A DNA stretch of 37,391 nucleotides from Amoebophrya sp. A120 (Eukaryota > Protista > Dinoflagellata), in NCBI GenBank assembly GCA_905178155.1, contig CAJINV010000046.1, positions 1-37,391 of the forward strand. Direction: 5' to 3'. Positions 9,947-37,391 of the stretch are shown piece after piece; the first letter of the stretch is position 1, and each line of letters opens with the position of its first letter. A program made the position numbers and the translations under genes. The notes below the pieces were generated by a model, which was given only the letters and a program-made list of their open reading frames with translations, was not told the origin of the DNA and did no database searches.

Positions 9947-10015
9947 ACCCGTGCTGCGTTCCAGAACAGGCTGCTGCGCCCCTACCTGGAGCTCCGCACG
10001 ACTCCCAGACTGGTG
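9947..10015 (+). repeat. Split direct repeat B1
   Basis: acccgtgctgcgttcc...cagactggtg, identical to 10442-10510. Confidence 0.97.
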
Positions 10016-10280: not shown

Positions 10281-10379
10281 ATATGGCTCGCGTAGCGATT
10301 ATATTAGTTTATCCGATCCGATCAAGAGGGTTGAGCATTTGCAGTGGTGGACTTGTCCACACCTGGCTCTAGAAAATTT
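10281..10379 (+). repeat. Split direct repeat A2
   Basis: Identical to 575-673. Confidence 0.97.
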
Positions 10380-10441
10380 TACCCTCCCAGCAGCTCGGCA
10401 CTTGCGCACCTCGCTTCAGCCCGCCCTTTGGATGGCCTCTC

Positions 10442-10510
10442 ACCCGTGCTGCGTTCCAGAACAGGCTGCTGCGCCCCTACCTGGAGCTCCGCACGACTCC
10501 CAGACTGGTG
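10442..10510 (+). repeat. Split direct repeat B2 (right terminus)
   Basis: Identical to 9947-10015. Confidence 0.97.
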
Positions 10511-10729
10511 GAAGACGGGGCCAGTGTGTCCTCCAACTAAGTACGTGTTCATTCATTCCTAGCGTTATCTTCGTGCAAGGATCCCGAGATGTCAAGGAGA
10601 ACGCGAAGGTTCAGATTTCCCATTGCATCATTGAACAGAGAATTATAGGAAGCAGCAGAGAAAAGAGTACTAAAAATACCAGAAACCAGATCCTCTATAT
10701 AAGGCGTTTTTTGCAGGCAAATCCAAATC

Positions 10730-13557
10730 ATGTCGGGCATGGCAAGCTACTTGCCTCGTGCGACTGGTGGCTTCGTGACTCGTGCTGTAGCTACTTCGTT
10801 CGTGATCGTGTCTCTGTTGCGTCCATTTCACGAGCTGTGCACATCACAGGAGCAACTTCCCACCCTGGAAGTTGTCGGCAAAAAAAGTGGTGCGAAAAAA
10901 AAGAGTGCGAAGCAAGCCAAAAGTGAAAAAAAGGCGAAAAAGAAACAGAACAAGCAAAAGGATAGCGGTGGCAAAAAGGCAGCAAGTGCCACCAGTGACG
11001 CAGAAAAATCGAAGAAAGCCACAAACTCAAACGATCGCCCGAGCAGCACGAAGAAGATCCCGGAGGCAATAGAGGAGGAGAATGAGGACGATGAGGAGGA
11101 TACTAAATCCTCGGGCGGTAAAAAGAAATTCCACGAACTAGACGGGGCGCCAATGGCGGACTTTCCCGCGACGACCAACACAGTGCCGGTGGTATCAGGC
11201 GAAATCGACTGGGCAGAATTTTACGAGAAGTACGCCCGACACCACCAGCCGGTGCTGTTCCGGAACGCGAACTTCCGCAACCCCTTCTTGGAGAAGTGGA
11301 CCGACCAGTACTTTGCAAAGGACAAAAAGATCGGCAAAATTGTTGTGAATGCGGAACGATCCAAATCGGAGGTCCGGGGCGGGCCCCGAGCACAGATGCT
11401 GTTCAAGGACTTCATCAAACGCAAGGACGTGGAGGATCTGTATGCCATCATCGGCACCGAGGCGGTCCCGGAGTTCGGCCAAAGTCCTGCGGGGCTGATG
11501 AAAGCGTTCGCGGTGAAGGGCCCGAAGGGGAAAAAGGCGAAGGACGGCGCGCCGCCCGAATTTGTGCTGCACAACCGCAAGATGCTCGACCTCAAATCTT
11601 CCCAAAGAACCAGAGCCGCCAAATCTAGTTCATCGAAAAAGAAGTTATCTGCGGAGGAGAGGTTGCAGAGCGATGTGGAAATCCCCAGAATGCTGGCTTG
11701 CGAGGAAAACCTGTATCAGTCGATGACCATCTGGTTCTCCAGCGGAGGCACCAGCTCCGTGCTGCACCAAGATGACGCCGACAACTTTCTCATGCTCCAG
11801 GAGGGCAGCAAGCTCGTCACGCTGATCGACCCCAAGTTTGCCCGCGAAATTGCGATCAAGGGGGGCTACTCCAGGATCAACCAAGATCGGGTGAACCTGA
11901 AAAAGCACCCCAAATTTTTTCACGTGCCGAAGCAACGGCTGACGATGTACAAGGGCGACATTCTCTTCATTCCCAACGGCTGGTTTCACCAGGTCAATTC
12001 TGGGGGGACCCGCAATCTGGCGGTCAACGTTTGGTAAGTTGTACTCTTCTATCTTCACATGAGAAACTACAAACACAAAGAAACCTTCTGTAAACCGTAC
12101 TTAAATGGCCAAGTCCTCACGCAGGACAAAATTGCTGATCATGCATCATGACCTTTCTCGATGCCGCACGTGTGTGTGTCTGTGCGTGTGCCAGTCGTGT
12201 TGAAAACCTCTATAAGGCACTTGTAATTGTATCGACAAGGTGGAGTCGGCAGGATGATTTTCATTGGGCGGAGAACCTGGACACCATCCCGGACCTCTCC
12301 AAAACGCGGCCGAAGGCTAGCCTGCCGACGAACGAGACGGTTTGCACGCCGCTGCCACCGAGGGAGGACGGTAGTCGCATTATGCATTGCAAAAATGTCT
12401 GGGTCTGGAAGATTCCGAGACTTGTCATGCAGTTTTTCCAAGCTCCGCCAAGTCTGGAATGCAGGGCCTGGCATCACAGGTTCTGGAGCCCCTTGGTGAT
12501 GCCTATTCTGCATGAGAAATGCCCTCTCAGAATGGCCAGAAATGGGGACCTTTTGAAAGTCACGCAACACAGATTTTTGTATGATCCGCAACACGCATCA
12601 CAAGTTCGCATCCTTCCAGACCCAGACATTTTTGCAATCCATACGCATGGTGTTTCACGATGTGACCTTTTTCGACGAGGGGGTCTTGGGGAGCTATCAA
12701 ATGTAAAAATGTCTGGGTCTGGAAGATTGGAACTTGTGATGCTAACCTTGGACTCTAGAAAAATCTGTATTGCATGACCAGCAAGACGAGGAGTCTACTT
12801 TGTGCTACGCGGGGAGGGCATTTGTCATGCGGAGTAGCCATCAGGAAGCCAGCGCAAAATCTGTGATGCGCGGTCGTGCATTACAGACATCCTGGGTCAT
12901 GCAAAACATGCATGACATTTCTCAGAATCTTCCAGACCCAGACACTTTTACATTTGATAGTAGCGTGCGCGAACTGATGAAGAGGCGGTACCAGATATGC
13001 ACTGCACAAGTATCGTAGTAGTATAAATCGCATGACAGATTTCCTCATCATGAGAAGTGGAATTTCTAATGCGCATTTAGCTTGAGAAGGAAATTTGTAA
13101 TGCATCAATGCGATATAGTACGAATGCGGTACTTTTGCACAGGATACCAGAAACGGTACAACTACAACATGCGCGAAATTTATGAGGAAACTGTGGTAGC
13201 CTGTGCAACTACTGTATCGTATTTGTAGTAATCGCAATCATGCATTACAATTCTCTATTCCAAGGTGAAACAGCATGACAAATTCTATTTCTCATGCGGG
13301 CCGAATTTGTAATGCGATTTCTACTAGTGCGATGCTTTTGCAATGCATACGTGGCGCGACGAACGGATCTGGATCGGGACTCAGAAGAGGAGGAGGACTT
13401 GCGACGTGCGAACGAGCAGTATAAGAAGGCCCAAAACGGCGACGGCACCGACTCTGAAGCGGAAAGCGACGACGAGGAGGAGCAGCAGAAGCAAGATGAA
13501 GAAAGTTACGAAGAAAAAAGTGGAGAAGCGAGCGTAGACTCGGACGAGGAGCTTTAA
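10730..13557 (+). CDS. JmjC / cupin-8 family 2-oxoglutarate oxygenase, multi-exon (approx. exons 10730-12033, 12240-12380, 12649-12694, 12965-12995, 13152-13196, 13355-13557)
   Basis: QPVLFRNA, SVLHQDDADN (HxD), GDILFIPNGWFHQV. GT-AG intron 12034-12239 gives AVNVWWSRQ. Removing four TIR elements plus one TSD each gives a continuous frame to an acidic tail. Confidence 0.85.
12381..12643. mobile_element. TIR intron element (introner), family A, 263 bp
   Basis: tatgcattgcaaaaatgtctgggtctggaag ... cttccagacccagacatttttgcaatccata; TSD cgcat/cgcat. Confidence 0.93.
12695..12959. mobile_element. Introner, family A, 265 bp, opposite orientation to 12381
   Basis: tatcaaatgtaaaaatgtctgggtctggaag ... 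cttccagacccagacacttttacatttgata; TSD ggagc/gtagc. Confidence 0.92.
12996..13146. mobile_element. Introner, family B, 151 bp
   Basis: tatgcactgcacaagtatcg ... cggtacttttgcacaggata; TSD ccaga/ccaga. Confidence 0.9.
13197..13349. mobile_element. Introner, family B, 153 bp, opposite orientation
   Basis: tagcctgtgcaac... to ...gatgcttttgcaatgcata; TSD tgtgg/cgtgg; a 45-nt in-frame mini-exon precedes it. Confidence 0.85.
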
Positions 13558-14606: not shown

Positions 14607-17249
14607 ATGTCGAGCGCACCCGCAGGCCAGCCGACCAAGCCTGGCTCTCCGCCGCGAACGCACCAGCACCTGTCGGTAGACCACAACGTCCCGGCCCGCC
14701 ACAGCAATGTATCGGCAGGCGGATCCGCGGCTGAGAGTGTAGGATTGTCGTTTCAGCGTCACGGGCGCCACGGCGGGTGTCCGGTCTCCATCACGGGGCC
14801 GACCCGCTTGGAGCGCGATCTGATCGGCGAGCGCGAAGTGCCCGTCGGCGCCTACTACGGCGTGCAAACCCTGCGTGCGGTGGATAACTACCAGATCACC
14901 GGTATGCTGCTGCGGCAGTTCCCCTCGTTTATCACTGCATTTGCGCAGGTGAAAAAGTCCTGTGCGCTGGCCAACCATCGCCTCGGTGGGCTTGACAAAA
15001 AAATCATGGTCGCGATCGTGCAGGCCTGCGACGAGCTCATCGAGGACCCGGACCACTATCCTAGAGAAAAGCATACCTACTCCTACACCAGAAAAAATTG
15101 AATTTGTGTTTCGCTGTTCTCCCGTCCCGATAGCCTTTTCTTGCAATGCTGAGCCACTAGCGAGGCAATTTATTTCTGTGGTCATACTGTTGTAATTAAA
15201 ATAAAAGATGGAGAGTGTAAAGATGCGGACCTGTAGCTGGAGTCATCAAGTAGTCCAGGACTTGAAATAAAATTCGTCACGTTCTTGAAAAGCCGGCAAA
15301 AAGAGACCATTCTTTGTGACCACACTTGAGACAGCTGCAAATCGCAAATAAGTATTTTTGAATATTGCTGGGTGTTGTGCTTTTCTGCAGGATAAGCGGT
15401 ACGAGGAGAAGGAGCCCGAGAAGGCGGACATCATGCGGAACCTGCGGTACAGTTTCGTGGTAGACATGGTGCTATGCATTGCAAAAGTATCGTACTAGTA
15501 GAAATAGCATCACAAATTTTTCCAGAAGGAAAAATGGAATTTGTAATGCTGAATAAGCTAAGGAACGAACCAGACTTGTCATGCATGACTGCAATGACTA
15601 GGAGTACGATACTTTTGCACAGGATAGGTGCAAGGCGGCGCCGGGACGTCCACCAACATGAACGCCAACGAGGTGATTGCGAACCGGGCCCTGGAAATCA
15701 TGGGCAAGAAGAAGGGCGACTACCAGTTCTGCCACCCGAATGACCACGTGAACAAGGCCCAGTCGACCAACGACACGTACCCAACCAGCGCCAAGATTGC
15801 CATCCACCACATGCACAAGCATTTAGTGAAGTCCATGGAGCAGCTGCGGCAGTCCTTTTTGAACAAGGCCGAAGAATTTTGCAGCGTCGTGAAGATGGGC
15901 CGCACCCAGCTGCAGGACGCCGTGCCGATGACGCTGGGCCAGGAGTTTAACGGCTACGCCACGACGATTGGGTACGACTTGGAAGAGGTCACCAAGGGCG
16001 TGGACCGGTTCTGCTTCTGCAACCTGGGCGGCACGGCGATCGGCACGAAGATTGCCGCGGACCCGCGATTCAGCGAGACCGCCGTCGAGGAGCTGAAGCG
16101 GGTGACCGGGCTCCCCATCCAGCTCGCCCCGGACCTGATCGAGGCCAGCAGCTCCGTGGGCGCCATGCTGTTCTTCAGCGGGATCCTCCGCCGCGTGGCG
16201 GTCAAGATCTCCAAGATCTGCAACGACCTGCGGCTGCTCGCGTCCGGGCCCCGGTGCGGCTTCAACGAAATCCACCTCCCGGACATGGCGCCCGGGAGCA
16301 GCATCATGCCGGGCAAGGTGAACCCGGTGATCCCGGAGGTGATGAGCATGTGCTCGTTCCAGGTGATTGGCATGGACAACACGGTGGTGATGGCGTCCGA
16401 GGCCGGGCAGCTCGAGCTGAACGTGTTCGAACCCGTGATCATACACTCCATCTTCATGATGATGCAGGTGCTCAGCAAGGGCATGGACACGCTGCGCCTC
16501 CGGTGTGTGGACGGCATCGGCGCCAACGAGGACCGCTGCCGGGAGCTGGTGCACAACTCCATCGGGATCGTCACGTCCCTGCTGCCCACCATCGGCTACA
16601 AGAACGCCTCCCTGGTGGCGAAGACGGCGCTGAAGGAAAACCGGGCTGTCGGCGAAGTCGTGGTGGAGAAGGGATTTCTGAACAAGTCCCAGGTGGACGA
16701 AATTTTACAGCCGGAGAAGATGTGCGGCATATCCTCACCGCACATGCGGCGGCAGCACGCCACCGAGTCGCTGCACTCCCCCGATGTCCGCCGCAGGAGC
16801 CACCACTCGCCCAGCATGCCTCTATCGAACGCAAACAATATTACCTCCGTCATTCTCGAAAGCGAATCAACTTTAATATCATGCGGACGTTATTTCATTC
16901 TTGATGTTTTTTTCGCTGAAAATTCAAAAATGCAACATGAACATGATCAAACCATAATCCCGTGCTTGAACGTCCAATTATGACAACTGCATGAGCGCTT
17001 CCGCTTTCTTATTGTCATGATCAAGTGTTTCTTTTCAACGAGAATCCTAACAACCCGGAGTGACGGAGTGATATTTGCATCGCATAGCCACCGAAAACGA
17101 GCAACAGCGGGGACGCCGGGGCGACTTTTCCTGTCATGCCTGCGCTACAACTGGCAGGATCCGCCTCGTCTCCAAGAGAAGCTGCCTCGCAAAATGTCAC
17201 ACCTGCTTCTTCGCTGCAGCCGCCAGACGCAAAACGGCGCAAGATGTAG
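14607..17249 (+). CDS. aspA: Aspartate ammonia-lyase (aspartase), fumarase/aspartase superfamily (approx. exons 14607-15056, 15400-15472, 15632-16822, 17092-17249)
   Basis: RLERDLIGEREVP..YYGVQTLRA, spliced VDMVQGGAGTSTNMNANE, QSTND, KMGRTQLQDA, GSSIMPGKVNP, GQLELNVFEP. GGAGTS and TQLQDA fit aspartase better than fumarase C. Confidence 0.92.
15057..15394. mobile_element. Old, degenerate introner, 338 bp
   Basis: tatcctagagaaaagca ... tgcttttctgcaggata imperfect IR; flanks accac/agcgg match poorly, but removing element+5 nt restores the frame. Confidence 0.65.
15473..15626. mobile_element. Introner, family B, 154 bp
   Basis: tatgcattgcaaaagtatcgtact ... agtacgatacttttgcacaggata; TSD ggtgc/ggtgc; removal rebuilds DMVQGGAGTS. 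Confidence 0.95.
16823..17086. mobile_element. Introner, 264 bp, distinct TIR
   Basis: tatcgaacgcaaacaatattacctccgtca ... tgacggagtgatatttgcatcgcata; TSD gcctc/gccac. Confidence 0.8.
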
Positions 17250-18708: not shown

Positions 18709-21700
18709 ATGACGCAGAGCGCAGGCGATTCCACGTCCAAGAAAGCTCCCGAGGCTTACCAGACAAGAACGGGCGATAGCAGCTCGAAGCAATTCTTGGA
18801 AGGCGATGGTAGCGGCAGCTCCAAGCAAAGAAATGCTGCACCGGACAACAAAAAGGCCAACATGCCGCCACTTGCGTCGTTTGAAAGTGGGAGGATACCT
18901 GCTCCAAATATGGCGGCGTGAGCTCATTTTTTTCGAAGAAATTTTTTTTTTTGCTATGCGACTTTGGTAGCCATCCACGTTGGCATGACATGTGTCCCAC
19001 GACTGGAGTTAGTTGACATGCCCAGTCCGGAACCTTCGGCCGGAGCCCGGTATAGCGGCCCGCCTTTGATGCGACAAAGCGGCGACAAATGTGGAGCGGC
19101 CCCGCTTTCACTGTGGTGCCGAGGGTCTTACGCCCGGGGGGTGTTGAAGTATTGCCCGGAGCAGATAAAAGCATTCGCGCGCGCGGACGTTGCGCGGAAG
19201 GCGGTCTGCCATGCGTGGCCTTTGCAAATAATCCGTCACACAGAAACACACAAACCACGGGCGACCCCTAAAAGGCGCGCGCGCCTTGTGCGGGTGCGGG
19301 TGCATGGGGCTAGGGCCCCTCGGAAAACAGCAAAGAACCGGGGCGCCGGTGGCCCGCGATCGAGCCACGCCAGCTCGCATATGTCCCGGCAATCAAAAAA
19401 GCCGCGCGCCTAATCTGCGCGGCGCGTTTTATTACTCTGCAAAAGCCCAAAGCCCGCCCCCAGGGCCGGGCCGGGATTGGCACGCGGGGCGGTGGTGCAG
19501 CTCTGATTTTTCTCTTTCGGGTTGTGCAAGTGTTGCGCCGCGCGATTTGTGCCCTTTTGGGCCGTCGCGCTTCGCAGCTCCGATCCCGATTTCGAGGCCC
19601 CTGGGAAGAAAACCTACGGCGCCACTCCATGCGCCGCGCATTTCGAAACAGCCGCAGGCGCCCTTTTACGGCAATGCGGGGGCTAGGTGCCCTCTCCCCC
19701 AAGTCCGAGCGGGGGGCATGCGGGGCAGGGCTGTAGTTGCCGCCCATTCTGCGACCGCGTCAGGTGGAGGACGGCGGGGCCAGTTCGTGGGCTAAAAACT
19801 GGCTAAATTTTTCGGGATTTCCCCGAGGCCCCAAGGCCCGGGCACCTCTCTGGCTTGGCCCGTGTGCCGCCGCCCAGGTTCGTGTCTTATCGCTCCCCCC
19901 TGTCTGGTTCGTCTCCGCCTTGTCGGTCCCATGGGGTTTGTTCGTGTCTGTGGGCCACTGGTACAATGCGGCCGCGGTGCCTGCTCCTACCTTGTGTTTT
20001 GTGTTTGGCCGCGCGCCAAGTTTTAAAATTTAAAAATTGGCCCGGTTTTCCATAGAAATGTGGAGACGGCCAATTTCGACATGTCTTCCGACGCTGGTTT
20101 TCCGGATATTTTGCACCACGCAAAATATCCGGCAGCGTGGTCATGTGTGTTGCAGGGGAAGGCATTATCTCAGGCACAACAGGCTCGAGATGGTGTCTGT
20201 CACTATCTCGGCCAAGCCCTGGGGGTTGCCTCTCCTTATAATTGTTCTGCATCGCGCTCCGCGCTGTGTTGTGTTTGTCTTTCTGATGACGTCGACCTTC
20301 GTCGCAGGATTCTTGTTCTAAATGTGGCTTTGGAAATATAGAAGTCCAGAGGACTTCCATGTTTCCAAAGCCGCGGGATTCACACTTTTTCATCTTCGAA
20401 GTCGGCGGCTAAATCTGCAAGTTTGTGACTTCCTTCCCGAAATCACTGTACTCGCGAATTTAGCCGTTCGAGGCGAAGATGAAAGGAGTGTGAATCCCGC
20501 AAAGTTTAGAACAAGAATTAGAAGGGCAATTTAGAGCATGATTTAGCCATGCGATTTAGAACAAAAAATAGAATAGGGCTTAGAATAGGATTTAGCCGGC
20601 CGATTTAGCACACAATTTAGCGGGCCAAATTAGAAAGGATTTTCCGCGCTTTTTGCTAAACTGCCAATTTAGCAAAAAGCGCGGAAGGCTAAATCGTTTG
20701 GGGCGGTGGAAATGTGGTGGGGAAATATAATAACCATTCGCGCATGGGATGGCGGCCCACTGATTTCCGGGGGCCAAACACATTTCCGCCGGCGCCGGCT
20801 TCCGTTTGGGTCTGTCCTTCTTGGGTTCAAGGGCTTCCGCCTTCGGGCATTTCGTTTCCATGTCTATCCCCCATGCGCCATGGGGTGTCGTCTCGTTCTG
20901 TGCGCGCTCCGTCCGGGCCGCCGCAAAAAAGCCGTCGCAAACTCCGCTGGGGTTTTGTTTTCTTTTGCCCACGCCGCGCGGGCTTACTCTTTTCCTTCGG
21001 CGGCAACGCCACCGCGGTCGCCTTTGTTTGCCCGGACTTTTTAAAAATCCCGAAAAAATTAGCCAAAATTTAGCGGGCGAAGTCGCCCCACGCCCTCCAT
21101 CTGAACCGCGAGGTGGCGCGTTCTGCGTATTCTGCCAGCGGCCACGGCATTTGGCTACCCCATGCGCGTCGCGTCTTTGCTTTGCCTACAATGCCCCCCG
21201 GCGGTGGGGCGGGCTGCGTCGCTTTCTTCGCCCGCATGTTGAGCAAAGCCCCTCGGTTTGGGGGGGCAAGGCCGGCCGCCTGTTTTCCACATGCCGAAAG
21301 GGCCGGCGAGGAACCGTGGCAGCCTTCGGAAGGTGCTCGCGGCTGGTTGGAGGCGGTGTTCCATGGCAAAAATAGAGCGCCCAGAAAAGAGCGGCAAGGC
21401 CGCTGGAAGAGCAGCCTGCCGAGGGCGTGCGGGCGGCTTGCGCGCGCGTGCCCTCTATGGCAGTTGCGGCCGGTTCGGCGATGCCTAAGTGCGGAAAGGC
21501 GGCGGGCGGCAGATTTTGCTGGGGCTCTCGCGACCCTTTCTGTGGCTTTTTGTTATGGGCCGGGGCCGCTAGCCCCGCCGTAGGGATGGCGCCTCGCGTA
21601 GCCTATTGCCGCCAAGCTTGCCGCCGTTTTTCTGTTTTGGCGCCTTCGGCGTCGCGCAGAAGACGGGAATCAGGAGCCTGTGGTGGCGCACAGAGGTCGC

Positions 21701-24700
21701 AAAAACCGGAAGGGCCCCCACACACAATGGCCCCGGCCTTTGGGTGGAAATCATACGCAAAGGCGCACGGGGGAATGTTGTTCTGCGGCTTTGGTGCAGG
21801 CGTTGGTGGTTGCGCGTCTGCAGCAACCGGCAAAGCCCCCGAAGAACGAGGCCGCGCGCCGCATTCCGGAAGCCTGTGCTGCTAGACATGCAACCTGCGG
21901 ACCGCGCTAGCGGTTCGGCTTTACTATTTTCACCCCCCCGGAAAAAAGCCCCTCACCCCCCCCTCCCGGAGAGGCGAAAGCGCCAGCATTCCATCGGGGG
22001 AAGCTTCGAAACCACCCCCCCCCCTCCGGGACCGTTCACCCCCCCCCGACAGGGGCCTTCCCGATGCCCCTCAAAGACAGAGGCCCCCGAGGAAAGGCGT
22101 CGCGGCGCGGCGTAGTGGGCTGCCTAAATGTGTGAGCGCTGCAGGCCTTGCGCACCGGCGGGCGGGCATAGGCGAGCGGCCTTCCGGGCGTAGCAGGACA
22201 CCGCTAGGCCCTTGCGAATACAACAAAACCCGCACTGCCCTGCCTAAGCAGTGCGACGCGCCCGCCCGGGCCCGCCTGCCAGCACGGCCATGGCCTTTTT
22301 GCTTCGCAGGGCCCGCGCTGCTCTCCGGCGTGCCTAAGCGACAGCAAAGGGCGCGGTGGTTTTTCGGACCGACCCCGGGGCCCTTTGCGCTTACTCTGCA
22401 CCCGCCCCGGGATTGTTTCTGATCCTAGCGGCCTCTGCATCGCTGCGCGCGCCGAATCACGAAACTCCGCCCGCCACGGGGACAGCGGCCTTGCTGGCGG
22501 TTGGTAGTTCTTTCGCAGACCCCAAATCCGCCCCGCAACCAAACAAGGAGGGGCGAAGGCACTGCGCGGCGCGCCCTCACGCCCCTAATTTTTTGGCACG
22601 CGCACCCCGGGCCCCCCGCCGCCATCGGGCCTCGGCAACCAAGGGCCGGCGACCGTGAATGTGTTGCGAGGCGGGCAGCTGTTTGCTTTTATTCACTTCT
22701 GCCCAAAACAGTTCGCCAGCGCCACCGCCTGCCCAGCGCCCAAGCGTGACCCTCACGCCCTTTGGGCTTTCGCTGCCTGCGTGGGCCCCCTCCTCGGCCG
22801 TGGCCGACTGTGGCGGCATGATGCGCGTGCCGCTGCGGATGGCCAATCGCCGGCATCTCCCGGCGCGTATGTCTGCAGCGCCAGGGCGGTGGCCGTCTCT
22901 TGTGCCCAGGTGCCGGCATGAGGCCCCCTTCGGGGTGGATTACGTGGCAGGCCGCCCACGGTTTGCCACCGGGGCAAAGCGGGCAGGAAGCCGGCGCGCC
23001 GCCTTCGCGCACGATAGAGGAGGGGGCCCCCCAAAGCCCCGCCCGGGCGGTCCGGCCTTTCGCCTTTTTTCTCGGCCGGGCCCGGGGAAGTTCATGCCCC
23101 CGCCTTCATATTTCCCGGCGGAGTGCGCCTGTGTGATATCCAGCCGCGGGGCCCCCCGCGCTTTTGTCATCTCGATAAGCCCCCCCAAGGTTGGGAGGCT
23201 CGCTGGGTTTCCCGCCATTCCTGTGGCGCCAATTTCGCACGAAGGTGCGCGAGGCCGGTGCGCGCGTACTAGTGGCGCGGCCTGTTTGCCTTCGCCAGGC
23301 CAATCGGTTTGGGTTTTGCGGCAGAATCATAGACACAAACAAAGGAGCAAGGCGGCCGCCGCCCAATTCCGCGACCCCTGGCCCCCCCAGCCCGCGGCCA
23401 AATGTCGGCGACCACGCGCCACAGCCTGCGCACGGGCCGCGCCTCGTTTGTGGTCTCGCCGCCCTATTGCCATAGCGCCGCCACAGCTTTGCGGTCATGG
23501 GTGCTGGCGGTTCCACGTTCGCGCACCGCTCCGAGACGGGTCCGCGCCTCAGCTTCCTGCTTTACCACCCCGCCGGCTACCGCAATATCGGGCTCCGTCT
23601 TCATTTCGCAAGCGGGCCTTCTGCTATTAGTCACAGTAATGGGGCCAGTAAATGCACATATTGCTAGGCATTTAGGTGGCATATGAAAAAAAAAAAATTT
23701 TTTCAAAAAAAATGAGCTCGCGCCGCCATACCAAAGGGCGGCGCTAACAAAGGACCGGCTCCGTCTGCAAATGCTCCCGATGCGACGAGTGGATCCCCTC
23801 CTGCGGTAAAGAGAAAGACGAATTCCAATTCGATAGTTGTACCAAAAGCACCATCAGATCCTTCTCCCCCGTCTGGGGAAATAGCAAAGAGCAATCTTGG
23901 AGGGGAGCCCAGTACTGGATCGGTCACAGCGGAAGCGAATTCTAATATTAGTGGCGCAGGTAATTATCCACCAATAAAGCCGAGTATACTAAAGGGCACT
24001 ACGTCACCAGGTGCTTCGGCCCTCTCCGATGGTGATGGAACGTCCGCAGCTGTAACGGATGCTGATACGACTGATCCACCTCCTTCATCTCCTGCAGCTA
24101 CGAATACAACTGCGACGGCGACTGCGAACCCGGCCGGTCAAGACCATTCCCCCGCGAAACCAAAAGCCGGCGCACTAGTGCACTTTCAATCTTCTGGCAC
24201 TATCCCTAATTTAGCTCCCTCCCGACTGGACTCCACGGCGAGCAACTCAGCGGGCATGTCCATGGCGAGTGCTATGGCCGCGAAGCGGGCTGCGAAGACC
24301 ATCAAGGAAAAGGCACGGAAACTTCGCGACGAGCGGCTACAGAAGATCGATGCACTGAACCCCGCGGCCAACAACTTGGTGAAAGAGCGACGCGCCCTGC
24401 GGGGCCGGAAGGATATTTCGCTGATGCAGCGCATCGTGGTCTCGAAGCGGTTCGACTTCCTGGTCACGGTGTATCAAATGTAAAAGTGTCTGGGTCTGGA
24501 AACTTGTGATGCTGTGTTGCGTATCATGAGGACAGGAGGCCACAATTGCTGGCTCAGCATGCCAAGTTTCTGAGCTTCTAGGTGTTGCCTATTCTGCATG
24601 ACAAACTACGATTCTGCATGACAGAAAAGTGGGGCTCTTTGGTAATGTGCATGACAGATTTCAGAGTCATGCCAGACAAGCATGACAAACTTGCATTGTT

Positions 24701-27700
24701 CCAGACCCAGACATTTTTACATTTGATACGGTGCTAATCACGGCGAATTGCATCTTGATGGGGTTCGAATACCAACTAAGTGCGGACCACAAGGAGGACT
24801 ACGCCACCGGCATCGCCTATGGAAGCGTCAGGTTTGAAATCGTCAAAGTTGAAATAATGACACATCTACCCTGGTAGATTCTTTTCGTGGAGTGACTGGA
24901 AGGAGTTCCTCCGGTCGCCTTTGTTCATGGGCTGGCAGATCCCTAGAAGCTAATGCCTGGAGGTACTGGACTCCCTTCCCCTGCGAGAGGGGCGGGAGGG
25001 TGCCTCCCGTTCGCGGTGTTTGGATTGCGTTTTGAGCTGTTAGACGCAGCTATTTTTGTCTTTACGCACAGGCTTACATGTTCCGCTAGAGTGCGGAGCA
25101 CTGCCTAGAGGGCAGTCCCAGCGGGGACAGTTTGCGTTTGCCGATGCTTCGCTAGAGTGCGGGGCATTGCCTAGAGGGCAGTCCCAGTCGGGACAGTTTG
25201 CGTTTGCCGATGCCTTGCTAGAGTGCGGAGCATTGCCTAGAGGGCAGGCCCAGCGGGGACAGTTTGCGTTTGCCGATGCTTCGCTAGAGTGCGGGGCATT
25301 GCCTAGAGGGCAGCCCCAGTCGGGACAGTTTGCGTTTGCCGATGCCTTGCTAGAGTGCGGAGCATTGCCTAGAGGGCAGGCCCAGCGGGGACAGTTTGCG
25401 TTTGCCGATGCTTCGCTAGAGTGCGGGGCATTGCCTAGAGGGCAGCCCCAGTGGGGACAGTTTGCGTTTGCCGATGCTTCGCTAGAGTGCGGAGCATTGC
25501 CTAGAGGGCAGTCCCAGCGGGGACCGTTTGCGTTTGCCGATGTTTCGCTAGAGTGCGGAGCATTGCCTAGAGGGCAGTCCCAGGGGGGACAGTTTTGCGT
25601 CTGCCGATGCTTCGCTAGAGTGCAAGGAATTTGCCTTGAGGGTTGTCCCAGCGAGGACAGGTTGGCGCATGCTCGCCATGGGGGCGGCCTCAGCGGAGGC
25701 GGTGTCGCGGTGTTTTGCTACACGGCCGAGTCCAGTGGGGAGTAGTTTTGCGGACATTTACTATGGGGCAGTTTTATCGGAAGATGCGAAGACAGTGCTG
25801 CGTCAGCGTCGGTTTGTTGTGAGGCAGCCCCAGATAGAGTCGCGGGTATAAGCATTGGTAGCCTCAACGAGGATTGTGCCTTCTGCAGTTGGATCGTTAC
25901 CGCTGGAGGGGTTCTGGTGTGGCAGGCCTTCACAACGTTGTCGCTTTCGCTGTAGAGGTGAGGCTGGCCGCGGCCGTCCTGGGGTGTCCTTACCAGATTG
26001 AAAGGGCCACGGTAGTTAGCTTGGGCTGGCATGCGTCTATATGTATTTCTTCCATCCTTTTGGGCTCCAGTCTGGGCCGGGTTGTCACGTCTTGAGGGCG
26101 TCGCGGTATGTTTTCTACACTGGGCAATGGCCTTGCACTCTCGGGGCCGGCGGCCTCTTCTCCCTTGGAGATTGATGTTGGTATGCGCACTCCCCGACCA
26201 GAAGTTTTGCGGAGGCCCCCCCGCATCCGCGCGGGGGATCTCGGATGATATTCTCCAGAGACTGTTGCTGTTCCGTCTCTTCGTCTTCTTGAAAGTGCTT
26301 GCATTAGCGCGCCGGTAATGTTGGGGGCATTGTTTATTTGCCCAGAGGTCTTGTCTATTTTGCAATGTGACATCTTGTGGCCGGGGTCGCCACTGTTCGG
26401 CAGCGTCGTTTGGCGCCTTATTTCCGTGCTCTATGGTGGATATCGATATACCTTCATCTGTCCTCGATCCCGCCTTGCTTTGGGAACAGGGGTCGTTTGG
26501 CACTGGCGGTACCCAATCCGTTACCCTTGCGAACTTGTTCCCATGCTTTGGCTGGGGTTCTTGGTGTCCAATTTGTTCGCCCTCTGTTCCCTTAGCAGGG
26601 TGGGGCCGAGGATCCTCCAAGTCAATTACAATCTATTGCGCTACATACTGCTTCGTGCGGGACGATGGTTGTGGTTCTCTAGTGGCGGACCCGTCCTTCT
26701 TGACAGGCTGTCTCTATGGGCACGGTGTGGCCTCGTTGGCGCGCCGATACAATCATAGGCGCACGGATTCCTTCCGGCGGTAAGGGGCTCGCGCGCGAGT
26801 CTGTATGCCTTGGGGGCTACGATAGCGCTATCGTTCGCCACGCGCTCCTGGGGAGGGCTTTGCTTGTCGCTAGCCACGGCAGGCATTGCTAGGTCTAGTG
26901 CCTCTAGTGAGATTTTGGCGCCCGTGGAGGCGGAAGGGGGCCGCAAAGGGGCGGCTGTTCGTGCTCGGTCTTCGGTTGTTGGTCAGTATCCGGGAGTATG
27001 TAATGCCCTTGTTGCGGGCTTCTGTGGCTTATTGTTTGGCTTGTCCCGCGGGAAGCACTACCGGGGATGGCCCCCTGCTCTTTCAGTTGTGCGCCTCTGC
27101 GTCCAGTTGCAACGGCTTCTACTTTTGACCCGTTACACGGGGCAGTCTCTCCCGGCGGGCAGGGACGTACTCGAAGATGTTGCTCGCGTTTGGCTGGCGC
27201 TCGGGCGCTTTTGGTTTTGTGTCACGGAGACCGCTGCGCGCGCCGGGGCGGTTTGTCTCCAGGGCGCCTACGTTTCAAGTTTTGCGGGCTCTGAGGCTTT
27301 GCTGCGTTTATTCTGGCGGAATTGGTGTCATCACTGTATTGCCGGATCCGGATGTGGTTCGCTTTTTCGCGGTTACTTGGGGCTCGCCTTCCGTGCGGGC
27401 TATAGCTCCGAAGTAGGGGCCGGGGCAAGTGGGGCTGGGCTGGCGCTTCTCTCCCCCCATTCAACCACCTGCGGTGGGGTTCTGGGGGGTCTTGCCTGTT
27501 GGCCAGGTGGTGGTGGAGTGGGTCGTTCCCTGCTGCGGGAGCGAGGGTTCGACCCGCTCGACCCAGCCCCAATGGCGCCGTCCAACGGGTTACTCGGGTT
27601 GGTTTGGCGCATAGGATGACAGATGGAAGGAACGCAACGAAATTGTAATGCATAAAATGCGATACAAAAAGCGACTCTATTGCAGAGGACGCAAGGGAGG

Positions 27701-29372
27701 CAGATCATAATCCTGGTAAGGGTCAAAAGTTGGACTGCTGACTAGCATGACAGAAGGCAGCTCTTTTGCCCTAAACCGCATGACAGACTCGCTTCCAGGA
27801 CCGGGAAAATTTGTCATGCACCGACTACAAACTGCAGGTCTAACTGGTATCCGTTTTATGCATGACAAACTATTTCAACTTTGACGATTTCAAACCTGAC
27901 ACATCCATATCGCCATCGGCGACAGTCTGTTCTTGCTCTTCTTCACGGTGGAGCTGGTCCTGCGCTGCATGGCGTTCGGGGCGCGCCGAATTCTGTTCAA
28001 CTTCCAGTACTCCCTGGACGTGGCCGTGGTGTTGACCGGGTGGCTGTTCGATGTGTTCTTTCCCCTGGCGACCACGGGGACCATCACGGTGGCTGGAACG
28101 GACCAGAAGGGCGGTGTGCAGAGTGCGGTGAAGATCCTCCGCGTGTTTCGGGCCTTCCGCGTGCTGCGGTTGCTGACCATCTTCGAGCACTTGTGGCACG
28201 TGGTGCAGTTGTTCTTCTTCTCCCTGACCCCGTTGATGTGGACGGTTCTGTTCATCATGATCATCATCTTCCTGTTCGGGATCTTTTCCGTCGTCATCAT
28301 CGGGCAGAACGATAGCATGACCTACGAAGCGGACGACAACAACCCGGAACACGAGGAGGCGTTCGACAACGCGAAGTCCCTGTTCGGGACGACGCGGGAC
28401 AGCATCGTGTATTTGTTCCAAATGATGACGCTGGACGGCTGGACGGACATGGTCGTCCCCCTGTCCAACGACCACATTTGGCCCTACTTCTACTTTCTGC
28501 TCTTCATCTCCATCTCCGCCCTGGGGCTGATGAATCTGGTCACCGTGACCGTGCTGGAAACGGCCAGCCGCCAGCAGCGGGAGGTGCGGCGCAACCTGGA
28601 CATTGACGAGAAAATGGGGGAAATCCAGGACCTGCTCCAGTTCCCCGGACAGGAGGTGGTCAACACGACGCGGACCTTCTTCATCGAGAACTACAAGAAG
28701 TCGCTGGCGTTTCGCAAGGTGTTCGAAAAGCTGGACCTCACGGACGAGGACGCGGGCTACTTCTTCGACGCGATGGACCTGGACAGCAGCGGCGAGCTCG
28801 ACCCCTTTGAGCTGTCCACCACGTACATGGAGTTGACCACCTCCGTGATGAACTCCACGGCGTCCGTGGCCCTGATTCGTTCCGCCAATGTCCCGGAGGA
28901 GAAGGGCCGCATCCTGAAGGCGACGATGTTGCAGGCGCAGCAGAGCCGCTTCCAGGAGATCGCGAAGAAAAATTTCGACGACGGCCTCAAGGCCTCGTCG
29001 CGGGCGGCAGTCAAACAGAACGAGCAAATGCTGGCGGCGCGCGAGGATCGGGCGTCCATGAGCGAACGGCAGGACAAGATTCTGAACGAGCTCGCCGCGT
29101 TGCGTGAGGAAGTACAGGCCCTGAACTCGTTGCGGGAAGAGGTTTCCGCTATGCGCAGCGGGGGCACGATCAAAAGCGGCGGTGTCGTTGTTCCAGGGGG
29201 TACAATGGGTAGCCAGCATCCGTATAATAATCTTCACCAGCGCCCGTTCCGGTCCTCGAGCCGGAGTAGAGTAGATCCCGACCCGCAATTTGACGCAGTG
29301 GCCATGATGAGCCAAACGTCGGATGGAAAGAAAGCGCCGCGTGCAGTATCCTCGGTCGATTTAGTCATCTAG
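18709..29372 (+). CDS. Single-domain (6TM) voltage-gated Ca/Na-type channel with C-terminal EF-hand (approx. exons 18709-18908, 23736-24471, 24734-24817, 27915-29372)
   Basis: Spliced S1 FDFLVTVLITANCILMGFE, S2 DSLFLLFFTVELVLR, S4 KILRVFRAFRVLRLL, pore FQMMTLDGWTD, S6 LMNLVTVTV, EF-hand DLDSSGELDPFE. Confidence 0.88.
18909..23730. mobile_element. Giant TIR element / introner, 4822 bp
   Basis: About 45-bp imperfect TIR tatggcggcg(t/c)gagctcattttttt...; perfect TSD ccaaa (18904-18908, 23731-23735); removal joins ...RIPAP to KGGANKGP... in frame. Confidence 0.9.
24472..24728. mobile_element. Introner, family A, 257 bp
   Basis: tatcaaatgtaaaagtgtctgggtctggaa ... ttccagacccagacatttttacatttgata; TSD cggtg/cggtg; interrupts helix S1. 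Confidence 0.95.
24866..27615 (-). mobile_element. Nested, decayed, 5'-truncated non-LTR retrotransposon-like insertion
   Basis: Flanked by atgacacat/atgacagat. Minus strand has PLL..24 aa..YSDDT (RT-like spacing) near 27320-27420 and HLYSESDNVVKA (weakly RNase H-like) near 25920-25960; many stops. Confidence 0.5.
25084..25670. repeat. 66-bp tandem repeat, about 8 full units plus a degenerate one
   Basis: gctagagtgc recurs at 25085, 25151, 25217, 25283, 25349, 25415, 25481, 25547 and 25614. Confidence 0.95.
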
Positions 29373-30262: not shown

Positions 30263-33010
30263 ATGACGCCTCCACGAGGTTTTTTTACTTTTACGTTGTG
30301 CTTGCGGTACGGCTTGCTTCCGTGGCGCGGCGCAGGCGAGCTAGCGCCAACCCTCTTACCGGAGAACGTCACAGACGCCTTCATCGACCGCTCACCGCAT
30401 TCCCGCTACGACGACTCACAGCAAGTGCGCACGGTCGTTGTAGATACCGCCGCGGAGTTTACGGATGAGGAAGAACGGGCGGGCGAGTCGGGTTTTGTGG
30501 AGAAATCAATATCCGGCGATTCCAGCGCGATTGGAGAGTTAGAAGAAGCACCCTCCACCACTAAAATTGCGGCGGATGACCAGACGGAGCAAGGAGATTT
30601 TTACCGCGCTGCCGGGGAGAAGGGGTTGCAGCGGAGCGGACACGGGATTGGAGCGGATTACTCAGAAGTCGGAACGAATGACACGGAGTCCACAGGATCA
30701 GGAGTGGTCAACTCGTTTCTAGTTACAAAAGCAGGCGCATCCACATCAACTTCAACAAGATTGGCGGATACCGTTCGCCACACAGCAAAAGCGATCGGAG
30801 GGGTTGGCTCCATGTACATGGGACTACCTACCGTGTGGGGCGAACGGATTGGTGACCTGGTTGCGAGAGGAACCCTGCGAGGAGGTAAGCTGGCCATCGA
30901 GGCAGCGTGGAGACTCCAAGAGGCAATACGCGAGAAGATGATGCACGGCGTGCAAATTTTGTTTGACCTGTCGCAGCGAAAGCTCCAGGAGATTTCCAAG
31001 AAGTGGGAAGAGCACAAGCAGAGACATCCCAGCCTCGCGTGGTTTGCTGTGCACGTGGTGGAGGCAGAACCAGGTGCCCTAGTACGTCCTCTAGCAGACT
31101 TCATCGGAACACAGATCGCCGATCACCACAGGAAGTTTTCGCTTTGGACGCACTTGCAGAAGTGGTTCTGGGAGGACCTTGGCGTGCTCAACTCCATCCA
31201 GCAGCTGCATGTTGTGACGGACAAAGATTCCTATCGCGAACTGAAAGGGAAAAGCGAAGCTGGAGACACCGACTACAACAAAAACTTGGTGTTCGAAAAC
31301 CACGCATGGCTCAACAGCCTCGCTGATCGTGATCGGGAAGATCACTCTGCTCCTGGTCTTGACCGATGGCGGAAAGCAGAGCTTTATCGTACAATGGTGT
31401 TTGCTAAAGCTGTGTACGAAGCGAACCCGATTGACGCAATCAAGAAGCCTGGCGCTTTTCTTATAGAAAGCGCAGCGCCGGGGGTGACAGATGAGGATCG
31501 GGAGATGAAAGACCACTCGGGAAGAAAGGAATATGTAGACGACTTTAGCAATGTGGACCAGTTTGCGTACTATATCGACGCGAAGCTCAACGAGCCTGCG
31601 TACATGATCCTGCGGGACGACTTGTTGCAGGCTATTGTCGTGGTGATTCAAGGGACTGCCGGCCCGGCCGACATCCGAACGGATCTGCACTATGGAGACT
31701 GCTGGGTGCCGTTGGCGGACTTCGGCGTCGGCAATGAGAAGTTGCATCACCATTCTGTCGACCACGAAAAACAGGCCGTGGAGCACAACCCGCATCATCC
31801 GGCCGTGCACAAACACCCGGACCCGCAACACCGTCACTCGCATGACGCAAATCACATTTGTACACGACAGAAGCACAAACGAGACAAGCAAACCCACTCC
31901 GTGAATGAAATGGTCCGAGTACACGCGGGCTTCTTCAAAGCAGCGCACTACGTCAGCTTCAAGACGTTCAAGCTCGTGCACAACATGCTGAAACACGATG
32001 AACATGAAAAGTACAAACGTGTGATCATCACAGGCCACTCTCTTGGTGCCGCTACTGCTCAGTTTGTTTACGCCATGTGGCGCGGAACGAAAGCGTTCCA
32101 TGACATCGACCACGCGCGAAAGAAACACGCCAAGAAAGCGAACCGCGACCATCACCCTATTGAAGTCAAGTGCTACGCCCACGCGAACCCGGGCATGATC
32201 AGCACGCACGCCCAGGTGCACCATTTGAAGGAGCAGGCGAGAAAAGGCACGATCAAGGCCTCTGACTTACTTTTCCCGTTCAAATCGTTTCTCACTACCA
32301 TATTCACTGGAAATGTGTCAATGTTTGGGTGTGGCGGAGTACAAAACCGTTTCCATGTCTAGGTACTTATTCTGCAACATGAGAGACTTCGCTCGTTGCG
32401 TCGCAAGAAATGGACAACTTGTGGCACTCATGTAACGCGGATGTCTGTGTAATGGCGTTCCACTAGAGAGCTAGCATTACATCACGAGCAAAGCTCGTAT
32501 CCGTATCGTTCCAGACCCAGGCATAACTTGGTTTGCAATGCATAGATCATAGCCGGCTACGACGTCGTGCCGCGTGTGAACTACCCAGAGCGGCTAAAGA
32601 ATATGGCGGATGCGGCTTTCGCTGTTCTAAGCACAGCCGACACGGAGTCCGAAAACTGGAACAGCGAAAATTCGGCTGCCAGCGATCTCTGGACAGCAGT
32701 CGACACAGCCCAGTCTGAAGAACTGAAGCAACCCACCGACGCGAAATCTGGTGGAGCACTCCCGTCTGGGCAACTGGTGCTGTATTTGCCGGGGCCACCG
32801 GAACCCGCACCACCAGAAGAAAGCCATGTGGCGGGAGTGTTTGGCTTTGCAATTGTTCATCAAGAAACCTTTAAAAATCCTATTTTCAGCATGAAAGCGT
32901 TACTTTCGCATGACGGTGCGAACTACATCGCGAAATTGGCAAAGCTGTTTGTTTCTACTCCCAATGGGCTGCTGCGTCCAATTGCTCGCGACAGCATGCA
33001 TTCTGCGTAA
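30263..33010 (+). CDS. Class 3 lipase (alpha/beta hydrolase), 2 exons (approx. 30263-32300, 32550-33010)
   Basis: IVVVIQGT, VHAGF, ITGHSLGAATA (GxSxG), spliced AGYDVVPR (Asp), SHDGANY (His). Possible N-terminal signal sequence. Confidence 0.88.
32301..32544. mobile_element. Degenerate introner related to family A, 244 bp
   Basis: tattcactggaaa...tgggtgtgg / ccagacccaggc...tttgcaatgcata; TSD tacca/gatca; removal is needed to link the catalytic Ser exon to the Asp/His exon. Confidence 0.75.
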
Positions 33011-33893: not shown

Positions 33894-36147
33894 ATGCTGC
33901 AATATTGTCCCTGCGCGACAATGTGGGGCGGATTTTACGACGTGTTTTCCCCGGCGGACAAGTGCGCCGCGGCCCCGCCCGGCAGCGGTGTGGTCGGTCA
34001 GCCCGGTGCAGCGAGTTCGTCAGTCGGAAAAAGCAGTCTTCAGCATGACGAGGAGAATCCGACTGTGGAGCTTATATCAAGTGCAAAAATGGCTGAGTCT
34101 GGAAGATTGCAACTTGTCATGCTGTTTTTGGACTCTAAAAGAATTTGTATTGCATGACCAGCAAGAGGGCTACAGTGAGTTCTTGCTACACGGACGGGCC
34201 ATTTCTCATGCTAAAGGTGCATCGGGAAGACCTCTAAAAGTCTGCGATGCTAGGTCAAGTATTACAGGCATCATGGGTCATGAGAAATATGCATGACATT
34301 CTTTTTCTTCCAGATCCAGACACTTTTACACTTGATAGCTTACCGTCTCGAGCCACCCCAGCTGCTCCTCACGGGCTCGCAATCCGCAGCTCGCTTATCC
34401 TGTGCAAAAGTATCGTACTCGTATTGCAGTCATGCATTACAAATCTTTATCTTAAGGTTAAGGTAAATCCGCATTACAGATTTTCTCTCTCATGCTGAGG
34501 AAATTTGTAATGCATTTATACGAGTGCGATACTTTTGCAGTTCATATCGCTCAACTGGACGCGAAGTTGATCGGTCGGGTGGGGAAGCAACTGCATTTAT
34601 CGGCGGACGGCGTGGTCAGCGGCAGCACCAGAGGCACGGTCTACGGCAAATACAGAATTGAGCAAGACAAGCTGTACTACGAAGTTGAAATCTTACGAGC
34701 AGAGAAGAAAAACCACAGCACGCCTTCCAAGAAGGCAAGACTCTTCCTGGGTCTGACCAACACAGTGGCGCCGAGAGGTACGCCGGAAGAGACAGCCGAC
34801 GACGATCTACCTGCGGTACTTATGATTGCCTTGGTTCTGGAAGGGGGCCTAGGGCTAGGCCTCCACAAGTTGTTTAGAGACATACATGCTTGAATCCTGA
34901 TTTTCTTTTTTGACGTCGACAACGTAATAAAGAAACATAACCGTCTGCACTTTCATTTTCACCTGAAAAAGAAATCGGATCAGCAAAACAAACAATCCGA
35001 GTTCTAACTCCAAGTATTAATCCTTCGAAATTATCAAAAGCGAGGACACGGCTGCGAAGTCGAAGTGGAGGGAGGTGACATTTTCAGCTGCACCTACGAC
35101 CAAGCCAACTATCCTACATTCAACATCTACCAGAATGCAAGTCTTGTGGAGAGTGTCACAGGTACTACAATCAAGAATGCACACTTGAAAGTGCAACTAG
35201 TATAATTTAGAAAATCTTCTAACATTTTCTCAAAATCAAAATGATTTTCATTTTAGAGCCGCACCTTTTTCACTTCTTGTCCTTCCGACGTTGGTAGTTA
35301 GAAGTGCGACTTCTTCGTAATGCTGTACTGGAAATAAAAAGGTTGACAAACCAAAATCTCAACTACGCCAATTTGTCTCAACGTTTAGACAAAACGTCCC
35401 AACGTTGACCCCGACGCCTCAACTTCGGCACCGTTTAGGTTTGGGGTTAGGGTCTAGGGTTTGGGGTTCTGGTCGTCGGCCAGGGCAGCCGCCGCCGGCC
35501 GGCGGCGGCTGCCCTGGCCGACGACTCTCTCCTTTCCTTGTGTTGTGTTTCACGCCCACGCCCCTGCCCGTGTGTGTTGCCGCGCCCTTGCGCCCCTTGT
35601 GTCTCATCGAGTGCGTCTCGCGTCAATGGTGGCGGGCGTGCCTTTCCGCCACTGCCGGCGAGCGTTGTTTGAGGCCGCCGGGCAATCGTTGAGACGATTG
35701 CTCGTCGGCGTCATGAACGTTGAGACAAGAACGTTGAGATTTTGGTCTGTTAACCAAATAAAAAGATGAACACGCACAAATTACATAAAACTAAAAACAA
35801 AATCTGACGTTTCTCCTGCTCGCGCTCCGTCTTCAGGTATGAAAGGCCAACTGATACCCTATGTGTCTTTCTTGGACCACCTTCATGGACAGTTGTCGCC
35901 TCATGAGGAAGATGGTGGAGAGCGGGGTGACCAAGAAGATCTGTCTACCACCGCATCCACAGTGTCCGTCCCCTCTGTGACGGGAACTACTGCAGCCGCC
36001 AGAGGCAAAGCAAGCGGAAGTTCGGTCGGTGCCGGAGGGAGCGCCGAAATTCACATCCTCTGGCGATTTCACGACGTGCGCAACAAAGAGGCAATGCCTG
36101 ATTTTGCAAATTTTGATAAATTCATGACCGCCCGCAGTGTGATATAG
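33894..36147 (+). CDS. SPRY-domain protein, SPRYD7-like (approx. exons 33894-34074, 34343-34395, 34552-34815, 35041-35161, 35837-36147)
   Basis: IEQDKLYYEVEI..LFLGL, GDIFSCTYDQ..FNIYQN, GMKGQLIPYVS. Two introners plus GT-AG introns 34816-35040 and 35162-35836 keep the frame. Start could be 33921. Confidence 0.7.
34075..34337. mobile_element. Introner, family A, 263 bp (same orientation as 12695)
   Basis: tatcaagtgcaaaaatggctgagtctggaag ... cttccagatccagacacttttacacttgata; TSD gctta/gctta. Confidence 0.93.
34396..34546. mobile_element. Introner, family B, 151 bp (same orientation as 13197)
   Basis: tatcctgtgcaaaagtatcgtactcgta ... tacgagtgcgatacttttgcagttcata; TSD tcgct/tcgct. Confidence 0.93.
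35341..35755. mobile_element. Mutator-like MITE (415 bp) inside a canonical intron
   Basis: TIR ggttgacaaaccaaaatctcaac / gttgagattttggtctgttaacc (21/23); 9-bp TSD aaataaaaa; iterated subterminal tctcaacg. Confidence 0.85.
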
Positions 36148-36934: not shown

Positions 36935-37391
36935 GATGACCAGCAATTTACCCGAACAAGAAAACACTTGCTGATGTTGGATGGACCAAGCAAAGCTCCA
37001 GACGCGAGCGAAGCTCCGCCTGCACCGGTGACCGAGGAAACCGTGGCAAGGCTGGAGGCGGCTGCGGAGAGACTACTGCACATGCCTACTGTAGTATCCC
37101 ACGAAAAAACTGTTTTACTGTGGAGTGGTGATTTTGCAAAATCTGCGTCACAAGTTTGTTACGCCTGACACCGAAAATCTGTCATGCGGGGTTCCCAAGG
37201 GAGAACACAGCTAGAAATCAACTGTCTTGCATGTGTAGCTTGCATGTGTAGCATGACACACACTTGTGCGATCCATTTTCTGCATCACAAGTTCACAGTG
37301 AAACAGTTTTTTCTTGCGATATGTAGTCCGGCCCCAAGTATTGCAACGTCCCGGAAGCGGGATGAGCGGGGGGTCCGCAGGAGTCCCCACA
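36935..37391 (+). CDS. Partial hypothetical gene, runs off the window end
   Basis: Open frame after an AG at 36934 (...VARLEAAAERLLHMPTV), continuing as VRPQVLQRPGSG... once the 37095 element and one TSD are removed. Confidence 0.55.
37095..37321. mobile_element. Introner, 227 bp, distinct TIR
   Basis: tatcccacgaaaaaactgttttactgtgga / ttcacagtgaaacagttttttcttgcgata (26/30); TSD tgtag/tgtag. Confidence 0.9.

Follow-up and report, generated by a model that had tools for sequence, protein, structure and literature searches.

Introner elements in both orientations in genes of Amoebophrya sp. A120 and their probable removal from RNA at positions set by their inverted ends

Two families of introner elements, here referred to as A and B, were each found both ways round in + strand genes within a 37,391 nt stretch of Amoebophrya sp. 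A120 DNA (contig CAJINV010000046.1, positions 1 to 37,391, here called the window), as the initial annotation had claimed, and the two orientations were about equally frequent in loci of a related assembly. It is very probable that the elements are removed at the RNA level, whichever way they face, and that the place of removal is set by their ends. This much is common to the 3 readings weighed below, in which the paired ends guide the spliceosome, a non-spliceosomal enzyme cuts the RNA hairpin, or each end motif is read separately. The elements, their hairpins, the missing U1 and introners inserted in either orientation are already known, whereas the even orientation ratio without canonical splice sites is new, as is a candidate ruler-like cut 1 nt upstream of the opening TAT and 4 nt downstream of the closing ATA (register -1/+4), the latter being derived from few junctions in one run.

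A scan for TA-bounded inverted repeats followed by inspection of the ends yielded 14 elements in the window, at coordinates that the initial annotation had given correctly as far as it listed them (Table 1). They start with TAT (one with TAG), finish with ATA and carry the end motif of TAT, 7 variable bases and AAA. End positions 3 and 11 to 13 were nearly invariant in all families, which is partly set by the criteria for calling elements. An exact 5-bp direct repeat, a feature absent from the initial annotation, flanked 9 of the 14 elements. In the window and the related loci together, 131 elements were called with no criterion other than their inverted ends; 109 of these had an exact 5-bp target duplication, and no alternative length between 2 and 9 bp occurred in more than 10. 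A TA target duplication, as in Tc1/mariner-like elements, was rejected because 5 bp fits instead. With TAT...ATA terminal inverted repeats, a target duplication fixed at 5 bp and many short non-coding copies, the elements are short, non-autonomous, MITE-like DNA transposons. No Pfam match, to a transposase or otherwise, was obtained for the 3 longest frames tested within L1 and L2, and a search of the window against Rfam gave no matches. It was also noted that the insert of 2.8 kb within L2 contains a 66-bp tandem array at 25019-25661.

Table 1. Genes, elements and the joint intron in the window.
Feature	Position	Strand	Description
Host gene, JmjC/cupin protein (PF13621)	10730..13557	+	589 aa; one GT-AG intron 12034-12239; carries A1, A2, B1, B2
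Exon of 45 nt separating B1 and B2	13151..13195	+	In deposited gene model, conserved in A25 orthologue; missing from RNA contig
Joint intron B1 + exon + B2	12995..13353	+	One unit, AT...TG ends in -1/+4 register; inferred from X4 record 9
A1, family A introner	12381..12643	.	Orientation x; duplication 5/5; RNA contig piece stops at 12375, matching precise removal
A2, family A introner	12695..12959	.	Orientation y (opposes A1); duplication 4/5; removal inferred from 80-nt gap in RNA contig and protein P0121
B1, family B introner	12996..13146	.	Orientation x; duplication 5/5; own ends match 17/24
B2, family B introner	13197..13349	.	Orientation y; left end TAG, not TAT; duplication 4/5
C1, introner	15057..15394	.	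Duplication decayed, 2/5; unique RNA junction gives cut at -1/+4
B3, family B introner	15473..15626	.	Orientation x; aspartate ammonia-lyase gene; precise removal in RNA
E1, introner	16823..17086	.	Duplication 4/5; junction permits -1/+4 or 0/+5 only
L1, long element	18909..23730	.	4822 nt; ion-channel gene; TAT...ATA ends; duplication 5/5
A3, family A introner	24472..24728	.	Orientation x; ion-channel gene; from sequence alignment and frame
L2, long element	24818..27909	.	3092 nt; family element of ~270 nt with 2.8-kb insert inside
F1, decayed introner	32301..32544	.	Lipase gene; duplication 3/5; deposited model permits -2/+3, -1/+4, 0/+5
A4, family A introner	34075..34337	.	Orientation y; from sequence alignment and frame
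B4, family B introner	34396..34546	.	Orientation y; from sequence alignment and frame
D1, introner	37095..37321	.	Duplication 5/5; host strand uncalled

The proteins of 3 genes in the window were 100% identical to records of Amoebophrya sp. A120, and the elements are the introner elements already published for this organism, for which TAT-N7-AAA inverted ends, direct repeats of 3 to 5 nt and hairpins have been described (Farhat et al. 2021, PMC7789003). They share with these the organism label, the ends, the direct repeats, the hairpin, the non-canonical borders and the lack of an internal transposase. In the accessible text of that study, the position of the splice sites varied with respect to the hairpin and repeats of 3 to 5 nt were given, whereas we observed a strict 5-bp duplication with -1/+4 as the candidate register. 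The absence of an orientation bias and the joint removal of an inverted pair go beyond that account as far as it was accessible; all 4 uses of the word orientation in its main text concern genes. Many of the A120 families have been classed as terminal inverted repeat DNA elements, according to the text available from Gozashti et al. 2025 (PMC12130899), and a method of 2022 permitted copies in opposite orientations, as described in the accessible part of PMC9860276.

The opposing orientations within the families were confirmed from the interiors of the elements. After 60 nt had been trimmed from each end, A1 matched the reverse complement of A2 at 65% (95 of 146 columns, z = 14.0 against 200 shuffles) and its forward strand at 49% (z = 2.4). 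In agreement with the initial annotation, A3 resembled A1 (forward, 60%, z = 10.5) and A4 resembled A2 (forward, 69%, z = 17.4), while the reverse matches of A3 to A2 (55%, z = 6.2) and to A4 (53%, z = 4.2) were weaker. For family B, with 40 nt trimmed, all 6 pairs agreed, with z values of 6.6 to 10.8 in the favored direction and at most 1.5 in the other. The grouping of B1 with B3 and of B2 with B4, which had previously been read from the asymmetric ends, therefore stands, but the exact letters given for 2 of the ends do not: B2 starts with TAGCCTGTGC rather than TATCCTGTGC, and the far end of B4 reads TATGAACTGC on the other strand. Besides the JmjC/cupin gene, of which the spliced form aligned to the A25 orthologue at 42% over 111 columns, the + strand hosts encode an aspartate ammonia-lyase (PF00206) and an ion channel (PF00520). 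The host gene of A4 and B4 was assigned solely from a frame of 223 codons obtained after removal and from its codon score.

To count orientations we used 157 overlapping loci (404 kb) of one related assembly, JACKZZ01. The loci were located with a family A end motif in 13 of the 64 parts of the metagenome collection, and they resemble the window almost solely in the element regions; the viral collection gave no matches. A total of 271 unique elements was obtained, 8 of which came from the window; 167 were of family A size, 39 of family B size and 65 of other sizes. Host strands were assigned by a codon model trained on the loci alone and tested on the window genes, which was correct for 114 of 118 called sites at a threshold of 4 and for all 115 at a threshold of 6. 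The ratio of the 2 orientations relative to the host strand in the JACKZZ01 loci was 54:60 for family A (binomial p = 0.64) and 11:15 for family B (p = 0.56). These numbers represent 114 of 163 family A elements, since 35 were without a strand and 14 without an orientation, and 26 of 36 family B elements, 10 being uncalled. The even ratio was stable over thresholds from 3 to 12, with a lowest p value of 0.17. Strand calls of neighboring elements agreed in 96 of 98 cases, and Pfam matches were obtained for 8 of 70 frames on the called strand and for 0 of 70 on the opposite strand. A comparison independent of the strand model gave the same picture, in that neighbors of the same family at most 1500 nt apart had the same orientation in 21 cases and opposite orientations in 22. 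Among elements with one TATG and one TATC end, TATC was located at the 5' side in 43 and TATG in 22 (p = 0.013, uncorrected and post hoc), although TATG is the more donor-like end. It was also noted that the insertions in the loci and the window were biased in phase: in the -1/+4 register, 87 of 177 were located between codons, compared with 36 and 54 in the 2 remaining phases (chi-square p = 1.2e-5). Despite this bias, no clear target-site motif was seen.

Canonical splice signals were scarce. Among 177 elements of assigned orientation that have a perfect duplication, a GY-AG register that preserves the length was possible in only 12, so that canonical U2-type GY...AG termini are generally absent. 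G was present at position +1 in 58 of the 177, against 55.4 expected, and AG at the 3' end in 21, against 14.7 expected (p = 0.06, phase-matched). The duplicated bases thus resemble ordinary coding sequence and show little trace of a spliceosomal preference. Because of these 2 results we could rule out the alternative named in the initial annotation, namely that both strands carry usable canonical signals and that these are the ones used. The idea that recognition relies on symmetric features appears to be right, considering the orientation ratio of about 50:50, the few canonical sites and the observation in the RNA contigs that one kind of B end was used on the donor side at 12996 and 15473 but on the acceptor side at 13349. 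Excision independent of the strand, which the initial annotation had taken to be implied by the 2 orientations, has to be qualified. The part about symmetric ends holds, but 2 orientations alone do not imply non-directional splicing, because inverted ends give the same termini on either strand and can thereby produce an even ratio without strand-blind chemistry, and because introners with ordinary sites in either orientation have been published. According to the text available from bioRxiv 10.1101/2020.10.14.339549, such introners occur in Polarella glacialis (classes 6, 8, 10 and others) and Aureococcus anophagefferens, and there, as here, transposon insertions facing both ways have turned into introns. 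However, the Polarella and Aureococcus introners take GT, GC or GA donors from the element or the duplication, as they do AG acceptors in the classes described in detail, and one orientation predominates in Polarella classes 6, 8 and 10, whereas the ratio here is even.

Four sequencing runs were compared over positions 10700-24900. Run X1 was DNA-like, with an even depth of 44 to 49 on single-copy parts and the GT-AG intron kept, whereas X4 was RNA-like, with the GT-AG intron absent and silent stretches without depth; the RNA nature of X4 is the guess of the tool. C1 and E1 were present without gaps in X1 contigs at depths of 45.7 and 43.9, as were the single-copy flanks, and both were missing from X4. 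This largely refutes excision from double-stranded DNA before transcription, which the initial annotation had entertained and which would resemble the internal eliminated sequences of ciliates. The transposon anatomy, the unbiased orientation and the exact restoration of the frame would suit such a process, but the DNA-like run retains the elements that the RNA-like contigs lack, so that absence from expressed DNA, as in ciliates, was not seen. Furthermore, all 4 informative junctions fit -1/+4, a single register in the direction of transcription, with none in the mirror register, and 2 separate insertions depart together with the exon between them. We consider DNA excision highly improbable. 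None of the 15 X1 joints listed, out of 250, was a precise excision, although contigs lose rare forms. The raw RNA runs X10 and X11 had no exon coverage, and 137 of 138 and 2 of 2 reads, respectively, matched partially. About 135 reads in X10, which has the same species label, matched just one family A end (12695-12745) and had different flanks, suggesting that the family is common to another strain or species.

A few observations were made on the ion-channel region (18709-29372). In-silico removal of L1 (4.8 kb), A3 and L2 (3.1 kb) in the manner proposed for the short elements created a frame of 825 amino acids, which aligned to homologues over the A3 and L2 sites; the library protein P0127 spans just the last exon. 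X1 contigs with many differing letters at 18700-18900 and 24225-24736 suggest that there is a paralogue of this gene, and a low-depth X4 signal near A3 bears the same paralogue-type letters; no RNA junction was seen at A3.

The joints in X4 were deduced from the coordinates of the aligned pieces rather than taken from the joint table, and the register comes from 2 contigs of this one run. Record 10 showed C1, B3 and E1 removed. Record 9 consisted of pieces matching 12239-12375 and 13353-13820 with 80 bases between them, and among models that cut within the duplications there was a single fit, in which A1 and A2 were each removed precisely while B1, the exon and B2 were removed jointly. The joint removal bypasses an AG before and a GT after the 45-nt exon. 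Since the deposited protein P0121 contains this exon and the A25 orthologue conserves it, B1 and B2 are probably also removed separately; removal of B2 alone was seen only in the gene model for P0121.

A perfect duplication hides the position of the cut, which is instead revealed by elements with mismatched duplications and by exon-skipping junctions that join 2 elements. The RNA junction of C1 fits solely -1/+4, the junction of E1 and the deposited lipase model at F1 are compatible with it, and the B1-B2 joint permits -2/+3 or -1/+4. Three RNA junctions and 1 gene model thus lead us to propose -1/+4 as the candidate common register. The codon at C1 in protein P0001 is the one given by -1/+4 alone, but deposited gene models are not independent since they probably share RNA data with X4. 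The mirror register, -4/+1, was excluded by all 4 cases (3 RNA junctions and the F1 gene model), in keeping with removal that proceeds in the direction of transcription. Because the C1 duplication is decayed and its junction has no repeat, the position of the cut seems to be measured from the inverted ends, and because -1/+4 removes the element plus 5 nt, the reading frame is restored even where the duplication has decayed. Homologues did not indicate the correct residue at C1, which lies in a variable region, a lipase paralogue had V against the T given by the -1/+4 register at F1, and a codon test of 29 mismatched duplications did not discriminate between registers. Table S4 of PMC7789003 gives 9 top non-canonical motifs for A120, each of which begins with NT as the -1/+4 register predicts, and NT starts and AN ends are both frequent in the family table of PMC12130899, as far as these sources were accessible. 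However, neither table can fix the register, because the aligner places ambiguous junctions. No orientation count or fixed register for Amoebophrya was found in the literature text covered.

Reverse-transcriptase template switching across hairpins flanked by short direct repeats could in principle mimic such junctions. Hairpins and 5-nt direct repeats favor jumps of reverse transcriptase, and the hairpins predicted here are strong. However, the junction at C1 has no repeat, and A1, A2 and B2 break the frame of a gene that matches A25, so that real removal is needed. We regard this explanation, too, as highly improbable.

For the pairing of the ends, the evidence points in 2 directions. Folding predicted that the left end of B1 pairs with the right end of B2 (P 0.77 to 0.84) with the exon in the inner loop, and the pairs between the elements' own ends had P 0.00. 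For A1 and A2, equilibrium folding in context gave P 0.00 for the own-end pairs and 0.27 to 0.49 for the cross-pairs, yet these elements were removed singly. When 12 elements were folded alone, end pairing was predicted with P 0.26 to 0.97, while the fixed cut offset comes from 4 junctions only. No selection for stem strength in the transcribed strand was detected (172 G-U against 172 A-C; sense strand more stable in 105 of 200), nor did stems extend into the duplication beyond expectation (40 observed, 43 expected). Thus, the joint removal of B1 and B2 favors pairing, whereas the single removal of A1 and A2 and the absent stem selection speak against pairing as a simple rule. The behavior of A1 and A2 could be put down to folding during transcription or to the loss of frameshifted skipping products, but these would be after-the-fact excuses.

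We tentatively favor the reading, to which we give slightly less than an even chance, that a relaxed, U1-independent spliceosome removes the elements by using the paired ends as a ruler. The inverted ends would be required to pair, and the spliceosome would perform the chemistry without U1, cutting 1 nt ahead of the first TAT and 4 nt past the last ATA. Every intron would then start with N-U-A-U, with position +1 free, and end with ATA and 4 free bases. The U-A-U in this start matches a donor consensus of the GUAUGU type at positions +2 to +4. The interior of the element would be ignored, and a similar hairpin would form on either strand. According to the accessible text of PMC7789003, 83 of 89 spliceosomal proteins are present in A120, together with U2, U4, U5 and U6, and U1 was undetected, while canonical introns and U1 are described for another Amoebophrya strain in the available part of PMC12005148.

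It is also conceivable, but unlikely in our judgment, that a non-spliceosomal enzyme cuts and ligates the RNA by the same hairpin ruler, as proposed for the nonconventional introns of euglenids. Neither terminal dinucleotide is constrained, the internal AG and GT are skipped in the B1-B2 joint and U1 is undetected, all of which would agree with such an enzyme, as would the euglenid introns, in which pairing begins at +4 and -6 and which are released in circular form with no lariat (accessible text of PMC11282704). However, no such enzyme has been identified, 35% of the A120 introns are GT-AG, so that the spliceosome works in the same transcript, and a cut at -1 yields the donor-like N-U-A-U start.

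A protein or snRNA that reads each end motif (TAT-N7-AAA or its complement) would not need pairing, and the B1-B2 joint would then be ordinary exon skipping. This would explain why A1 and A2 leave singly despite their equilibrium fold and why there is no G-U/A-C bias, and the near-invariance of the end positions, partly a consequence of element calling, and the slight preference for one direction at end position 4 (43:22, uncorrected) also agree with it. Plain skipping is unexpected, however, given the AG before and the GT after the skipped exon, and recognition by a transposase explains the conserved ends equally well. We find separate reading of the motifs quite unlikely.

In its most far-reaching form, the A120 mode of removal would read no terminal dinucleotide at all: an RNA stem bounded by TAT...ATA would be cut at -1/+4, possibly without the spliceosome, and inverted neighbors would swap pairing partners and rewire exons. 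We consider this rather doubtful. If true, every insertion, at any site and in either orientation, would be an exact intron.

Several features recall the nonconventional introns of euglenids, which, in the accessible text of PMC11282704, likewise have non-canonical borders and a probable MITE origin; their ends are brought together by inverted repeats at a set offset, as is proposed for the introners. The euglenids are another lineage, however, with CAG/CTG at +4/-6 rather than TAT/ATA at +2/-5, and circles have been reported as their excised products. In line with the favored reading, the U2-type spliceosome of a tunicate removes non-canonical introns derived from terminal inverted repeat elements (available text of bioRxiv 10.1101/2025.08.15.670264). 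As in Fritillaria borealis, the transposon ends are the splice sites and removal is precise (bioRxiv 10.1101/2025.08.15.670264 and PMC11282704, as far as accessible), but the introns of F. borealis have narrow dinucleotides (AG-AC, AG-AT) and a demonstrated dependence on the spliceosome, whereas the first and last bases are free here.

In the accessible text of PMC7789003, the removal of A120 introns without GT-AG, which make up 65% of the total, is posed as an open question. The even ratio and the fixed register narrow the range of mechanisms and can be checked in existing RNA-seq data. If the rule is true, a transposon can fill genes cheaply, thousands of intron borders would be corrected, and the spliceosome or another enzyme would appear to be positioned by structure.

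Additional repeats were observed elsewhere in the window. A retroelement-like block at 575-10510 contains + strand frames at 2973-5339, 6352-8946 and 8504-9814, of which the frame at 6352-8946 had a weak reverse-transcriptase match below the Pfam cut-off. The block also contains split exact repeats (575-673/10281-10379 and 9947-10015/10442-10510), a layout that we presume to be like that of tyrosine-recombinase retrotransposons. Repeated intergenic motifs at 29744-29867 and 33539-33693, upstream of 2 successive genes, are possibly promoters or non-coding repeats, and a perfect GC-rich palindrome of 54 bp was located at 35472-35525, directly past a short run of telomere-like repeats.
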